Assembly (NCBI GenBank): GCA_965202985.1
Contig: CBDBCF010000001.1
Span: forward strand, 1,856,001-1,920,000
Reading direction: 5' to 3'
Source of the DNA: Longimicrobiales bacterium
Lineage (GTDB): Bacteria; Gemmatimonadota; Gemmatimonadetes; Longimicrobiales; Gaopeijiaceae
DNA length: 64,000 nt
A model generated the notes under the pieces. It did not search any database. It was not told the DNA's origin and saw only the letters and a program-made list of their open reading frames with translations. The position numbers and the translations under genes are program-made. Positions 29,715 through 36,884 of the stretch are shown here, in pieces (position 1 is the stretch's first letter; each line of letters starts with the position of its first letter).

Positions 29715-30374
29715 TCAGGCGGTGGAGTCGGGTTCGTCCCCTGGCGTGGTCAGCATCCTCTCAATTGCCCGGCCCACACAAGCGGCTCCGCCCCTCCGGC
29801 GAACCACAGTCGGCGGAGCTCCCATCGCCCGCCGCACCGTCCGTCGGTAGTTGGCCGAATCCGAGAAGCCCAGGGCCGTCGCCGCGACCCCCGAAGGCTG
29901 GTCGCTCCATTCGGCCAGTCGCTCGACCGTGTAGATGCGCCCCAAGTCGATCAGCTTCTTGGGAGTGGGGATGCCCAAGGCGGCGCAGCGGCGGATCAGC
30001 GCCCAGTGGGACAGTCCCAAGTCCGTCGCCAGGTCCGGCACCCTGCACGGAGCGAAAGATTGATCCAGGACTCGATTCATGATCCGACAGGCTTCGGCCT
30101 CGGCGTGCTTGCGCATCCGAGCCCGCAAGAGGCGAGGCCGTTCGGGATCGATGCCCTCCAGCACGACGCGCTCGACGGCTTGCAGCGAGTCTTGCGCCCC
30201 GAGCCGCAGCACGACCGCGAACGCAGGAGGCGAGCCGAGGCCCGCCGGGAACGAACCATCGACGATCACCGGCGACGCGGGATGGCGTTGGGCAAGGTCC
30301 TTCAACTCGCGCCAGCTGCCAGCGAAGACGACGGGTCCGACGATCGGCGAGATGGAACTCGCGTTAGCGACCAT
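29715..30374 (-). CDS. AraC-family HTH regulator
   Basis: VPDLATDLGLSHWALIRRC and VAATALGFSDSANYRRTVRRAMGAPP (two AraC HTHs); GGAGG RBS. Confidence 0.78.
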   Translation of the reverse strand: MVANASSISPIVGPVVFAGSWRELKDLAQRHPASPVIVDGSFPAGLGSPPAFAVVLRLGAQDSLQAVERVVLEGIDPERPRLLRARMRKHAEAEACRIMNRVLDQSFAPCRVPDLATDLGLSHWALIRRCAALGIPTPKKLIDLGRIYTVERLAEWSDQPSGVAATALGFSDSANYRRTVRRAMGAPPTVVRRRGGAACVGRAIERMLTTPGDEPDSTA

Positions 30375-30437
30375 CTGGACCCTCCGGCGAAAGTGCCGAG
30401 TGCCGGAGAGGGCGAGCAAGGGTGGCGGCACGTCCGC

Positions 30438-31007
30438 TTACAGATCGTCGTGGAACTTCTCGAGCAGCGACTCGCCCTGAAGCTTCAAGACGGCTCGGCG
30501 CACCAAGTTCGCCACCGTTGCCGGTCTGACCCCCATGAATTGTGCGGCCTCCACGTTGCTCCAGCCTTCCATTGCGGTCAGCCTCAAGGCCTCGCCCTCT
30601 CGGCCGGGCAGCCGGTTCAGCGCGTCGGCGACGGCCCGCTCCAACGCCCGGCGCTGGGCCTCGTCGTCCAACGCCGAACCGTCGTCGACCAGCTCCCGCC
30701 CCTCTGCGAAGTCCGTCGTCCGAGCTGCTGCCTTGGCGTCCTTGCGCGCCCGGGAGTTGCGATAGTTCTTCGCTGCGGCGACCAGCCAAGGCCCAAACGG
30801 AGTCCCGGCGGTGCAGTGGTGCAGCCGCGGCAAGATGTGGATCCAGAAGTCCTGAACGATGTCTACCAAGTGGTGACGGTCCACGGCGAACCGCCCAAAT
30901 ATCGTCTCGAGCACAGGGCCGTACGCCTTCGCGACACGGGTTACCTCGCTCGGGTCCCGGGCTCCCAGGAGTTCCAAGTCAACGTCTAGGGCGGGCAGCT
31001 CGCGCAT
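30438..31007 (-). CDS. ECF-type sigma-70 factor
   Basis: Region 2 (DIVQDFW...FGPWL..AAKN) and region 4 (ALNRLPGREGEALRL..MEGWSNVEAAQFMGVRPATV). Start could be 31049. Confidence 0.85.
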   Translation of the reverse strand: MRELPALDVDLELLGARDPSEVTRVAKAYGPVLETIFGRFAVDRHHLVDIVQDFWIHILPRLHHCTAGTPFGPWLVAAAKNYRNSRARKDAKAAARTTDFAEGRELVDDGSALDDEAQRRALERAVADALNRLPGREGEALRLTAMEGWSNVEAAQFMGVRPATVANLVRRAVLKLQGESLLEKFHDDL

Positions 31008-31205
31008 GGCCCAATCTTGCAGGTGGCCCTCGTCGCTTGGCAAGCCCATGCGGCTCCAAAGTCGGTGAAGATGGTCCTGCAAAAAATCGACCTACATTTT
31101 CGAACGGCTGAGAGCGTCTACCTGGATGTAGGGCGCAAGAACCGGGGAGACCGGCCGGCTACCGGCTCTTCGGGAATCGACAACTCCATCCTATGGAGGT
31201 ACGCC

Positions 31206-31409
31206 ATGCTCCACCTGCTGAAGCGCGTGTGGGTAGTGTCCAGCTGGGCACTTGCCCTCGTCGCGCTGGTCCTGTCGCCGCTGGCCTCCGCCAGCGACGA
31301 CTGCGAGATCACGTGCGAGAAGTGCGTGATCGACCTCCGTGAGGGCACGGCCGAGTGCTCCGACTGCACCGTCTCCGGTTGCGAGTTCGCAATCGGAGGA
31401 CCGGCGTAG
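31206..31409 (+). CDS. Small secreted Cys-rich peptide 1 (67 aa, 6 Cys)
   Basis: GGAGGT RBS, Sec signal ending ASA, mature SDDCEITCEKCVIDLREGTAECSDCTVSGCEFAIGGPA. Confidence 0.75.
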   Translation: MLHLLKRVWVVSSWALALVALVLSPLASASDDCEITCEKCVIDLREGTAECSDCTVSGCEFAIGGPA

Positions 31410-31514
31410 TCGGGGCACGCACGGCAAGCCCCACGGACCCGATGGGTCGGAGAGTCGGAGTTCTCCGGCCCCTCGGGGCGACCCTAAACGACAACGAAAG
31501 CTGGGGGCAACAGA

Positions 31515-34918: not shown

Positions 34919-35136
34919 AAAACACCACGAAGTGGATCATCGCCGCCGTCGTCGCCAACGTCCTGCTCCTGCCGCTGACGCTCGCCCCCGAAAAGGAAGC
35001 CGTGGCCGCCCAGCCGCCCGCGACGACCGGCCTGTTCGACTGTTGCGGCGGGTCCGCGGCACGGGCATCTTTCTGCTGCCGTCGGTGTTGCTGGCGTCCG
35101 CTCAGTTGCGCCGGGTGTCCCCCCGCGACGCGCTGA
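34915..35136 (+). CDS. Small secreted Cys-rich peptide 2 (73 aa, 8 Cys)
   Basis: ATGA overlap, MKNTTKW + hydrophobic signal, C-terminus CC-x9-CC-x2-CC-x5-C-x2-C. Confidence 0.7.
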   Translation: MKNTTKWIIAAVVANVLLLPLTLAPEKEAVAAQPPATTGLFDCCGGSAARASFCCRRCCWRPLSCAGCPPATR

Positions 35137-35161
35137 ACCCGACAGGGAGGAAACTCTAGAG

Positions 35162-36382
35162 ATGGCTACCGACGCCTCCATGCCGGCCAGCCCGTTCCTT
35201 CGGCGAGCCGTGTCCCACTTCGCCAAGCTGGCGGGGCTCTACGCCCTCTACGTGGCCTGGGCGTTCTCGAACGACTACGCAGCGTCCGTCTCGTACTTGC
35301 ACCGCGTCGCCTTGCTGTTCGGCGGGGCTTCGTTCGCGCTGGCGCTGCTGGTCGCTCCCGCGGCGTTCGCCGCGGCCGTCAACCACTTCGATCTCTTCGG
35401 CGAGCGGGCGATCGAGACCCGAAAGCGCGACTGGATTCGCCTTGCCTTGCTGGGACTGGGGGCGTGCTTGCTGCCCGAAGCGGGGATCCCGCTCTCGGAC
35501 TACGTGCTCGACATCGTGGCTCTGGACCGGGTGCGCGGGGTTGGCCAGCCGGGTGCCGACTACGCGAGTGCGCAGCTCTTGGTGCCCGTTGCCGTCGGAA
35601 TCTTCGTAATGATTTCGGGCGTCGCCGGGGCTGCGGTCGGCCATGCAACCGAGTGGTGGGAACCGGTGCGAAGCCACGCGGCAAGATGGTTGACCTTTGT
35701 TGGGTTGGCGATCGTATTCTGGATTCCCGTCTCGGTCGTCACAGATCTTGTGAGGTTCCAGGGTTATCCCCCGGTCTTGACGGTCGTCGTCCCGTCCCTG
35801 CTGCCCGCTTTGGCGACGTGCCTCCTTGTGCGGTCCCAGCGCTACGGCGTGCTGGAAGTGCTGGGCTTGGACCGCCGGCAAGCGGATTGGCTGAACGCGG
35901 AGGCGCTCGAGCGCGTGCTTGACGTGGTGATCCACGAAGACGAAGAGGGCCGCCCGACGATCGAAGAGGCGCTCCACGACGAAGCCGAGTTGGAGACCGC
36001 CAGGTTCCTGCGCGGGCTGAGGCGGGCCATGGCTCCGACGTTCAGGGTCACCGAGGCGGAGGTGGAGAAGATCGTCGCGAAGGTGTTGGCGGCGGCTCCG
36101 GCCCATGCAGTGCCCACGTTGCCTTCGATGTCACGTGCGTCTCGGCTCCGCGACGCTGCCCTGCGGCTTCGGGACGCCACCCTGCGGAGTCTGCCTAGGA
36201 TCGGCGAGTTCGGGCTGTCGTGGATGCTCCTGGCGGCAGGCTTGATGCTGTTCGGACTGTTGGCCGACGTGTCGCCCAGCCCGGTTGCCGCGGTGGCCTT
36301 GGGAGGCCTCGGCGTAGTCGTGCAGGACCTCTTGTCGCGACGGTCCGGCAGGTCCGTCCCAGCCGGGTTGGCGCCGACATGA
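35162..36382 (+). CDS. Hypothetical polytopic membrane protein
   Basis: GGGAGG RBS; about 6 N-terminal TMs, charged soluble segment, 2 C-terminal TMs. Confidence 0.7.
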   Translation: MATDASMPASPFLRRAVSHFAKLAGLYALYVAWAFSNDYAASVSYLHRVALLFGGASFALALLVAPAAFAAAVNHFDLFGERAIETRKRDWIRLALLGLGACLLPEAGIPLSDYVLDIVALDRVRGVGQPGADYASAQLLVPVAVGIFVMISGVAGAAVGHATEWWEPVRSHAARWLTFVGLAIVFWIPVSVVTDLVRFQGYPPVLTVVVPSLLPALATCLLVRSQRYGVLEVLGLDRRQADWLNAEALERVLDVVIHEDEEGRPTIEEALHDEAELETARFLRGLRRAMAPTFRVTEAEVEKIVAKVLAAAPAHAVPTLPSMSRASRLRDAALRLRDATLRSLPRIGEFGLSWMLLAAGLMLFGLLADVSPSPVAAVALGGLGVVVQDLLSRRSGRSVPAGLAPT

Positions 36383-36464
36383 GCAGGGCTTTCTCGGAAC
36401 GGCGCGGAGATCGGCTAGAGGGCTCGCGGGAGTTCGAGTCGCTGGATGCGTATGCGACGACGCG

Positions 36465-36884
36465 TCAGTCCCGTCGTCGCCCGATCGCGGCGTCCAGGGT
36501 CAGGTCGTCTTCCGGCTGGGTCCCCCACAGGACGGCGGTGCCCGCCACGATGATTGCCGACGGATAGAAGAGCACGTTGGCGCCTTCCAGCCACCAGCTC
36601 CACGGGTCCAGGATCGACTTCCACACGGCCGCGGCCGTGACCGCCGTGACCGCGAAGGTGATCGGATAGGTCAATTTGCGCCACAAGCCCGCCGCGACCA
36701 GGAGGCCCAGGGCGATCTGGAGCACGCCCGCCACTTGGAGGAACGTCGCCTGACTGCCGATGCCCAGGTAGAAGGCCTCGGCGACGCGGACCCCGTGCTC
36801 CACGTTGACCAGCTTGTCCAGGCCCCAAATCACCAGAAGCCATCCCGTGGTCACCCGCAGTGCAAGCAATCCCCAGCGCTTCAT
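36465..36884 (-). CDS. DoxX family membrane protein
   Basis: AGGAGG RBS; LLALRVTTGWLLVIWGLDKL...GVLQIALGLLVAAGLW; 139 aa, about 4 TMs. Confidence 0.82.
   Translation of the reverse strand: MKRWGLLALRVTTGWLLVIWGLDKLVNVEHGVRVAEAFYLGIGSQATFLQVAGVLQIALGLLVAAGLWRKLTYPITFAVTAVTAAAVWKSILDPWSWWLEGANVLFYPSAIIVAGTAVLWGTQPEDDLTLDAAIGRRRD

Follow-up and report, generated by a model that had tools for sequence, protein, structure and literature searches.

The locus at positions 29,715 to 36,884 of the analysed window, a 64,000-nucleotide stretch of a Longimicrobiales genome, raises the question of why genes for an ECF sigma factor and an AraC-like regulator lie next to those for two small cysteine-rich peptides, two thioredoxin-like proteins, two propeller lipoproteins and a multi-pass membrane protein. 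A preliminary description proposed a duplicated peptide/foldase/propeller module that makes knottin- or defensin-like peptides under sigma control, with a DoxX protein as a further member. Sequence comparison indicates that the locus is a recurring gene cassette of uncultured Gemmatimonadota, whose conserved unit consists of the ECF sigma factor, Trx2, propeller 2, peptide 2, the membrane protein and the AraC-like gene. Because the membrane protein joins an LptF-like core to a probable fused anti-sigma domain, the locus is read here as a sigma switch and not as a peptide factory. The linkage of peptide 2 with Trx2 and propeller 2 and the sigma control, which is built into the locus, are retained from the earlier interpretation; DoxX membership and the duplication are not, and a defensin-like role is not favoured for the family as a whole.

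Organisation of the locus

All ten open reading frames are present in the order and with the overlaps first described. The joints are exact (three ATGA and one 8-nt overlap) and GC3 values of 0.75-0.88 across the ten frames are coding-like. Export signals were assessed from hydropathy and lipobox conservation. Families of RiPP-modifying enzymes had been stated to be absent, and none is matched among the 14 proteins scanned; a DUF692/MNIO gene was likewise not found anywhere in the genome, which is 92% complete. As also stated at first, no named pathway was matched. The DoxX gene (36465-36884, minus strand) has a Pfam/NCBIfam match above cut-off and is convergent; it occurs at one of 58 loci and was rejected as a member of the system, to which it is a bystander.

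Peptide 1 (31206-31409, plus strand) has 67 residues with six cysteines, is preceded by a GGAGG ribosome-binding site and has a GC3 of 0.88. It consists of a signal-like helix followed by an acidic core with the spacing C-x3-C-x2-C-x10-C-x2-C-x4-C. Trx1 (31515-32027, plus strand) has an N-anchored thioredoxin fold with a CPFC site and matches Thioredoxin_2 below cut-off, and propeller 1 (32024-33181, plus strand) is a lipoprotein with a DUF5128 match below cut-off which belongs to a large genome-wide family of six-bladed propellers (about 38 tblastn matches across the genome). Peptide 1 is found in two of 251 family genomes, its sole clear homologue being a truncated form with five cysteines in genome G299, and Trx1 in two of 201, so that these three accessory genes look like an add-on. 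A single duplicated module is not upheld, as peptide 1 and Trx1 were each found in only two of the genomes searched and the cysteine frameworks of the two peptides are unrelated; peptides 1 and 2 as duplicates were rejected after neither tblastn nor profile searches gave a cross-match.

Peptide 2 and its partners

That the peptides are real and conserved is borne out. Peptide 2 (34915-35136, plus strand; 73 residues, eight cysteines) is a core part of the cassette and founds an unnamed family of 118 clusters at 50% identity, 116 of which keep the CC..CCxxCC frame. The family frame is CC-x8/9-CC-x2-CC-x5-C-x2/5-C and the copy at this locus, one of five in the genome, reads CC-x9-CC-x2-CC-x5-C-x2-C after a hydrophobic N-terminal helix (profile positions 5-23 in the family). 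Among 97 aligned members the eight cysteines are invariant and Asn15 within the helix is conserved in at least 90%. The net charge of the cysteine core is +5 in this copy, although the mean over the 97 members is -2.7, which does not favour a defensin-like role for the family as a whole. The helix type tracks the type of membrane protein, with NxxLLP present in 18 of 21 class II peptides compared to none of 31 in class I (the classes are defined below). A structure model predicts a helix and a beta-hairpin (pLDDT 72).

The family has no meaningful Pfam match and no match to PDB sequences, and Pfam/NCBIfam searches with the peptides, Trx2 and propeller 2 gave nothing useful. A single-sequence search from peptide 2 recovered one relative only and a query against the Atlas no usable match. 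Scans of genome and metagenome collections with DNA patterns returned mostly chance matches among those listed; the 238 pattern-matched loci listed contain eight peptide-profile matches in seven loci, of which the four that carry titles are all Gemmatimonadota or Longimicrobiales.

The proposed link of peptide 2 to a thioredoxin-like protein and to a propeller of its own is supported. Trx2 (33174-33701, plus strand), likewise a core part, carries a single cysteine in a CEHS site that aligns with the CGHC site of PDI-family structures, and its profile matches PDI/thioredoxin/TlpA-like structures. Members of its family have an N-anchored thioredoxin fold in which an RTPW motif of cis-Pro type occurs and a Gln of the anchor helix is conserved; in 49 sequences C74 and P143 are invariant and Q26 is nearly so. 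Near peptide genes 35 members have a CxxS/T site and 19 a CxxC site, and together with the cis-Pro loop these predict a thioredoxin-fold oxidoreductase. Propeller 2 (33698-34918, plus strand), an NHL-type lipoprotein that matches NHL-repeat structures, is a core or near-core part. In 22 sequences of its subfamily C22, C233 and C329 are invariant, corresponding to the lipobox cysteine and a cysteine pair.

The comparison set comprises 61 peptide genes in 58 loci, mostly from one genus. Every one of the 61 has Trx2 or the membrane protein beside it. Trx2 lies within 2.5 kb of 54 and propeller 2 within 1.7 kb of 26, while the membrane protein is encoded within 3.2 kb of 52 and directly downstream of 43. 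A true ECF gene lies within 4.5 kb of 52, a count taken after five response-regulator mis-hits were dropped. Nine peptide genes have no membrane protein nearby, and four of these stand beside a two-component system. Conversely, all five full-length membrane-protein genes and all four Trx2 genes of this genome fall in peptide loci. The arrangement is far beyond chance, since the peptide 2 paralogues, the membrane-protein genes and the Trx2 genes co-locate in this genome.

The membrane protein

The membrane protein (35162-36382, plus strand) is the central part of the cassette and had been passed over at first. It matches a single weak, unrelated family in Pfam/NCBIfam and has no conserved cysteine. 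Modelling predicts that its N-terminal domain (35162-35872) adopts the six-helix transmembrane fold of LptF/LptG without the beta-jellyroll; the model contains no strands, and a loop of about 12 residues occupies the jellyroll site between TM3 and TM4, whose starts are 47 columns apart in this family versus 187 in LptF/G. The curated cut-off of PF03739 is not reached: the profile has no match to the protein of this locus and finds nine of 27 short-form members at E<=0.1 (best 0.0014); individual LptF/G sequences give no significant alignment to the short form, and the long form aligns with LptF/G at P 1.3%, barely over controls. LptF and LptG, encoded as a gene pair, work with LptB through a Glu-bearing coupling helix. 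The short form of the cassette protein has lost about 20 residues at this helix; in the long form the helix is degenerate, and in a global alignment the TM2-TM3 loop is as long as the coupling helix of LptF/G. The protein is encoded by a single gene and not by an F/G pair, canonical LptF and LptG are encoded elsewhere in the genome, and the lists of cassette genes at the genome's five loci include no ATPase or LptB gene.

The C-terminal part (35846-36382) is a helical cytoplasmic domain with two TM helices and is probably a zinc-less anti-sigma module, as suggested by its distribution over three classes of loci. The 31 class I loci combine a short membrane protein with a separate anti-sigma-like gene which adjoins the ECF gene in all 31 and encodes HxxxCxxC in 28; its product has two helices in the membrane and matches zf-HC2 domains at P 96% in hhalign, with a profile iterated from class I sequences alone. 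In the 19 class II loci, the type described here, the domain is fused to the membrane protein and no separate anti-sigma was found. In class III (8 loci) the gene order is 6TM, ECF and then a gene that opens with the same domain and continues with two TM helices and propeller 2, as seen in all eight loci examined. The position immediately after the ECF gene is typical for anti-sigma factors (PMC7826278). The fused C-terminal domain is thus found at 19/19 class II and 0/31 class I loci and the separate zinc-motif gene at 31/31 class I and 0/27 other loci; the putative stand-alone factor and the fused domain replace each other between classes, although class-wise correlations are confounded by descent. 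Several class I loci have the order short membrane gene, anti-sigma, ECF, which is the adjacency that a fusion needs. Peptide 2 and Trx2 are absent within about 7 kb at the eight class III loci and at the long-form locus L416.

Direct comparison of the domains gives a weak match or none. The class II fused domain aligns with the class I anti-sigma at P 39% over 18 columns (score 29.5 versus 25.4 for the reversed control), and the 88-residue domain alone at P 1%. Against zf-HC2 anti-sigma domains it reaches P 0.2%, which is within controls, and it has no zinc motif and no match in Pfam or, by sequence, among solved structures.

Sigma factor and upstream motifs

The ECF gene (30438-31007, minus strand) has its longest frame from 31082, and the orthologue in G299 aligns from residue 26, which makes the ATG at 31007 the likely start. 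A TIGR02937 match of 56.4 bits (cut-off 42.9) and a match to Pfam Sigma70_r4_2 identify the product as a sigma factor in which both region 2 and region 4 are present. It falls into the class II clade of the ECF tree (15 rows, support 97/93), while class I forms a clade of 31 rows with support 84/85 (not starred). The AraC-like regulator (29715-30431, minus strand) matches PF12833 (HTH_18) above cut-off at its C-terminus. Such a gene lies within 4.5 kb of 20 of the 61 peptide genes, 19 being class II, and it marks class II cassettes.

The two classes also differ in their upstream motifs. The ECF-type motif TTGCAC-N17-19-GT[CT] occurs within 2.3 kb upstream of 24/31 class I peptides, compared to 1/21 class II peptides and 1/61 reversed controls, and the loci contain further copies, among them some on the same strand as divergent Trx2 genes. 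The candidate class II promoter/operator at this locus (31078-31132, plus strand), conserved in G299, contains a AAATCGACC block, 22 nucleotides and a -10-like CGTCTA, with the inverted repeat CCTACA...TGTAGG. This motif, which has a long spacer, was derived by eye from the same loci in which it was counted and is present at 15/19 class II loci versus 3/31 class I loci and 2/19 reversed controls. The copy at this locus is diverged and lies outside the top 25 PWM matches of the genome; a locus-specific pattern finds only its own site with one mismatch, and three sites with two mismatches versus two for the control.

Proposed mechanism

The favoured reading, in which we place about even confidence, is that the locus encodes an ECF envelope-signalling cassette with peptide 2 as its likely input. 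The fused anti-sigma-like domain would hold the ECF factor at the membrane. Peptide 2 would carry a Sec-type helix, and the conserved Asn of that helix would pair with a partner in the membrane, either the LptF-like helices or the Gln-bearing anchor of Trx2, while Trx2 would sort the four possible disulfides of the peptide. The folding or metal state of peptide 2 may report periplasmic redox or metal status, and propeller 2, which is carried covalently on the anti-sigma in other members, could be the receptor domain. The freed ECF factor and the AraC-like protein would act at the upstream motif to transcribe the cassette, and the ECF factor may also transcribe local cargo such as the peptide 1-Trx1-propeller 1 block. 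A tentative and rather unlikely extension is that an LptF/G-fold subunit which lost its jellyroll and its coupling to the ATPase was reused as the receptor for the Asn helix and signals the disulfide or metal state of the peptide to the ECF factor via the fused anti-sigma domain. Its binding of the peptide 2 helix would then parallel that of the LptC helix by LptFG.

It is possible, if somewhat unlikely, that the switch is real and peptide 2 serves as nothing more than its output: a disulfide-rich or metal-binding mini-protein with a bufferin-like or antimicrobial role, which is secreted, folded by Trx2 and chaperoned by the propeller and does not feed back on the sigma factor. Of the readings, this one comes closest to the idea of the preliminary description. 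Class III switches without peptide 2, and peptide-Trx2-propeller 2 operons that adjoin a two-component system instead, would fit such an output, but a disposable signal peptide needs neither the conserved Asn nor a helix that tracks membrane type, and the membrane gene follows the peptide directly in most cases. Bufferin precursors are Cys-rich, Sec-exported and controlled by ECF/anti-sigma pairs (PMC11626156) and a crude census of this genome counts 17 small Cys-rich ORFs that bear a signal, although the cysteine cores of the family are mostly acidic and the genome yielded no MNIO gene. An improbable alternative takes the membrane protein as a transporter or extractor subunit that recruits an ATPase of LptB type to move the peptide or a lipid; in this view the C-terminal domain is not an anti-sigma. 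It does not account for the way in which that domain and the zinc-motif anti-sigma complement each other across the classes; the predicted LptF fold and the loop length retained in the long form argue for it, and the missing jellyroll, the short-form deletion at the coupling helix, the lack of an ATPase among the listed cassette genes and the separate canonical LptF and LptG against it. A chance mosaic of common envelope genes without joint function is highly improbable and largely refuted for the six core genes, for while propellers and ECFs abound in the genome and both DoxX and the block around peptide 1 were added locally, the linkage is reciprocal in this genome, no peptide gene lacks both Trx2 and the membrane gene, and ECF clades and motifs are class-specific.

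If the receptor reading is true, the cassette would represent a novel type of sigma switch, built on an ABC fold and gated by a peptide, with several specificity variants per genome. The favoured reading, if right, would mean that the membrane fold of an ABC transporter has been reused for signalling and that a multi-pass protein has taken up an anti-sigma domain, and the eight-cysteine mini-protein would be a new scaffold. The three natural architectures (anti-sigma separate, fused to the six-helix protein or fused to the propeller) should make laboratory rebuilding easy, and the cassette gives an experimental way into the question of why orphan propeller lipoproteins and small cysteine-rich proteins are so numerous in Gemmatimonadota.

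Relationship to known systems

The literature covered yielded no description of the cassette, and a matching ECF group may be among those described with PMC7826278. Bufferin loci have an ECF and anti-sigma nearby, and DoxX in buf1 (PMC11626156). Peptide 2 resembles bufferins as a Cys-rich precursor, predicted to be Sec-type, under ECF linkage. In contrast, its cysteine frame is unlike theirs, DoxX is convergent and not conserved, PF05114 (MNIO, DUF692) was not found in the genome while a Caulobacter control was positive, and neither DUF2282 nor DUF2063 matches the locus proteins, peptide 1 or the 97 peptide 2 members. In Bacteroidales, NVEALA-DUF5128 neighbourhoods combine a small exported Cys-protein with a six-bladed propeller and a thioredoxin. 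Peptide 1, Trx1 and propeller 1 conform to this arrangement of a peptide beside a propeller lipoprotein and a thioredoxin-like gene, but the steadiest partners of peptide 2 are Trx2 and the LptF-like protein and not the propeller, and NVEALA has no match among the locus proteins or peptide 2 members.

NrsF and CarR are six-helix membrane anti-sigma factors. NrsF is named in the report on bufferins (PMC11626156), and six-helix anti-sigmas have been counted for five ECF groups (PMC7826278). In the cassette, as with these factors, a protein that crosses the membrane several times is proposed to regulate an ECF factor under oxidative or metal stress, but the membrane protein of the cassette has no Pfam match to such families, is predicted to have an LptF fold and lacks conserved cysteines. 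The LptF/LptG subunits (PF03739) of LptB2FG share this predicted six-helix transmembrane fold, and differ in that the cassette has no jellyroll, no F/G pair, no LptB gene seen in it, a coupling helix that is deleted or degenerate, and an extra C-terminal module.

A further comparison is with ECF/class I ZAS (zf-HC2) systems, which share with the cassette an ECF factor and a membrane regulator beside it; an upstream motif of ECF type is clear in the class I relatives and a candidate at this locus. These relatives also encode a stand-alone anti-sigma-like protein with HxxxCxxC. The predicted C-terminal anti-sigma domain of ECF241, with two helices, has been called a first (PMC7826278). Unlike in ZAS systems, the probable anti-sigma domain described here is zinc-less and placed behind the six LptF-like helices of the membrane protein, and the eight-cysteine peptide, Trx2, the propeller and the AraC-like regulator come as extras.

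The cassette and its surroundings

The ten open reading frames of the locus, their motifs and their four overlaps are all present in the sequence as the preliminary description had stated, and a curated-family search of the locus proteins returned only the ECF sigma factor, the AraC-type HTH and DoxX above the curated cut-off. DoxX had been counted as a cassette member, a view that falls away as it is present at the window locus only, among 58 loci examined. Peptide 2 and Trx2 recur, and genome searches found Trx1 and peptide 1 only in the window and in G299, a genome with an orthologous ECF gene. 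Two additional weak peptide 1 matches both lie inside long frames. G299 has a truncated peptide 1 and a propeller 1 that is broken into two.

The cassette is flanked by DoxX and a divergent amidohydrolase gene (36465-38529), and on this side the GC content rises from about 0.66-0.67 inside the cassette to 0.70 beyond it. The forward strand at 26322-29550 carries tandem secreted-type genes of ~350 aa each that are 65-75% mutually identical (two intact, one in two pieces, one truncated) and matched no curated family. Immediately 5' of this array lies a large lipoprotein-like ORF (24773-26470, forward strand) with an HExxH motif and a weak Ig-like match, an arrangement reminiscent of a putative toxin or enzyme gene with immunity-like repeats behind it.

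The peptide 2 family

A profile made from 6 sequences matched 118 clusters among 1.84 billion representatives, 116 of which share the frame CC-x4-12-CC-x2-CC, with two more cysteines in most. In an alignment of 96 clusters and the window peptide (22 clusters, mostly long, truncated or irregular, were omitted), 8 cysteines are invariant across all 97 sequences, and an Asn within the hydrophobic helix is conserved in at least 90%. Peptide 2 matched neither a meaningful Pfam family nor a solved structure; its predicted structure is a helix and a beta-hairpin, of modest confidence, for which structure comparison found no neighbour. Matches occur in at least 24 of 401 searched genomes of the phylum and at least 20 of 70 within the window's family, with up to 5 per genome, counts which are lower bounds because 14 candidates per genome were scored. 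Among the matches listed, four related loci have a stated origin, which is Gemmatimonadota or Longimicrobiales.

In the window's own genome (G000), tblastn and a six-frame motif scan identified four further copies, each adjoining an ECF gene and a membrane-protein relative and three of them also a Trx2 relative. A crude filter for a hydrophobic N-terminus and at least 4 Cys returned 17 small ORFs in this genome, with several unrelated Cys frames.

Gene neighbourhoods

The neighbourhoods of 61 peptide 2 ORFs were compared at 58 loci from the own genome, two congeners and phylum-search matches (omitting two weak matches with stops); the loci are not independent because most derive from one genus. 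Trx2 or the membrane protein is near all 61: Trx2 lies within 2.5 kb of 54, and 52 have the membrane protein within 3.2 kb, as the short form in 31 cases and the long form in 21; in 43 it is immediately downstream of peptide 2. Propeller 2 is found within 1.7 kb of 26, and 20 have an AraC-like gene within 4.5 kb. The ECF profile matched at 57, but 5 of these matches are to response regulators (L050, L055 and L094 seen directly, L056 and L064 judged by near-identical DNA), leaving 52 ECFs. Conversely, whole-genome profile searches of the own genome placed 5/5 full-length membrane genes and 4/4 Trx2-family genes in peptide 2 loci, with a single 80-residue membrane-protein fragment outside them. 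The cassette is real and conserved.

An 80-codon fragment (L006, G000:C1:1790008-1790283) is 86% identical to the window membrane gene and adjoins pieces resembling a transposase-type nuclease. At L050, L055, L056 and L064, genes for a PAS histidine kinase and a NarL-type regulator come after the peptide 2-Trx2-propeller 2 operons (order seen at L050 and L055), a pair that replaces the ECF and membrane protein. Cassettes also occur in tandem (L057, L062, L188): G368:C121 has three, G216 has a direct duplication, and L188 has two different peptide genes one after the other.

The probable anti-sigma module

In class I loci, which have the short-form membrane protein, the ECF is adjoined in 31/31 cases by a protein of 140-150 residues that has two membrane helices and, in 28/31, the motif HxxxCxxC. 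Its profile matches zf-HC2 anti-sigma domains (P 96%), its Pfam matches are below cut-off, and 13 of these proteins were first detected by an independent zf-HC2 profile. The class I anti-sigma profile has zero matches in class II loci, and the fused C-terminal domain of the long form occurs in 19/19 class II and 0 class I loci; because these distributions are complementary, each cassette of either class has exactly one of the two. The fused domain matches the class I anti-sigma weakly (P 39% across 18 columns) and general zf-HC2 domains not at all (P 0.2%). Its position, size and topology, together with the mutual exclusion of the two proteins, suggest that it is an anti-sigma module.

A search of 401 genomes with the long-form profile revealed a third arrangement, class III, with the order six-helix gene, ECF and fusion gene in 8/8 loci examined (L408-L415, e.g. 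G441:C1:317370-320350) and neither peptide 2 nor Trx2 within ~7 kb. The fusion begins with the long form's C-terminal module, an anti-sigma-like domain with two membrane helices, followed by an internal lipobox-like Cys and the propeller 2 domain, which is interrupted in L411; it may be a polyprotein cleaved at the internal lipoprotein signal. A 309-codon frame elsewhere (G061:C83:14559-15305, forward strand) matches PF03739 above cut-off at its two ends and lacks the central part; it is a further jellyroll-less LptF/G-like protein, possibly one that bridges to the window's membrane-protein family.

Regulation

In a tree of 52 rows (11 shorter ECF-profile matches omitted), ECFs downstream of short-form genes and those of long-form loci form separate clades. 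A sharp ECF-type motif is present upstream of 24/31 class I against 1/21 class II peptides and in 1/61 reversed controls, with additional copies on both strands within class I loci. Class II loci have the motif TGTCGNAAAWTGACC-N21/22-C[GA]T[CT] in 15/19 cases; a matrix built without the own genome's loci placed 5 sites of the other two class II cassettes in the top 8 genome matches, and the window's own copy outside the top 25. The partly palindromic upstream block of class II is a candidate site for the AraC-like protein. At L004:7401-7934 (G000:C2:906400) a peptide 2 paralogue is extended to 177 aa; after it comes a distinct exported protein, Cys-rich and 133 aa long, which is preceded by a class II motif of its own.

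Proposed mechanism

The likeliest reading, at about even odds, is that the cassette is an envelope-sensing ECF switch in which the sigma factor would be held by the fused C-terminal module, with peptide 2, Trx2 and propeller 2 as the input side. Polar residues are conserved in both single membrane helices (peptide 2 Asn15, Trx2 Gln26) and the peptide helix type tracks the membrane form (18/21 vs 0/31), which together hint at contacts within the membrane. The main alternative, which is less probable, is that the switch is real but peptide 2 is its regulated product; in its favour are the class III loci without peptide and the four operons in which the peptide gene adjoins a two-component system.

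Comparison with known systems

A full-text literature search found no description of the cassette, which is undescribed within the literature searched. Bufferin loci (PMC11626156) have traits in common with the window cassette, which is no bufferin locus as MNIO was not found in the own genome; the membrane protein is likewise set apart from LptF/G by the absence of the jellyroll. In PMC7826278 a C-terminal anti-sigma domain is treated as exceptional, and Gemmatimonadota do not appear in the main text. Judged from its sequence, the cassette would act like an ECF/anti-sigma module, and it adds two new parts to ECF signalling, a membrane component with a predicted LptF fold and a family of 8-Cys peptides.
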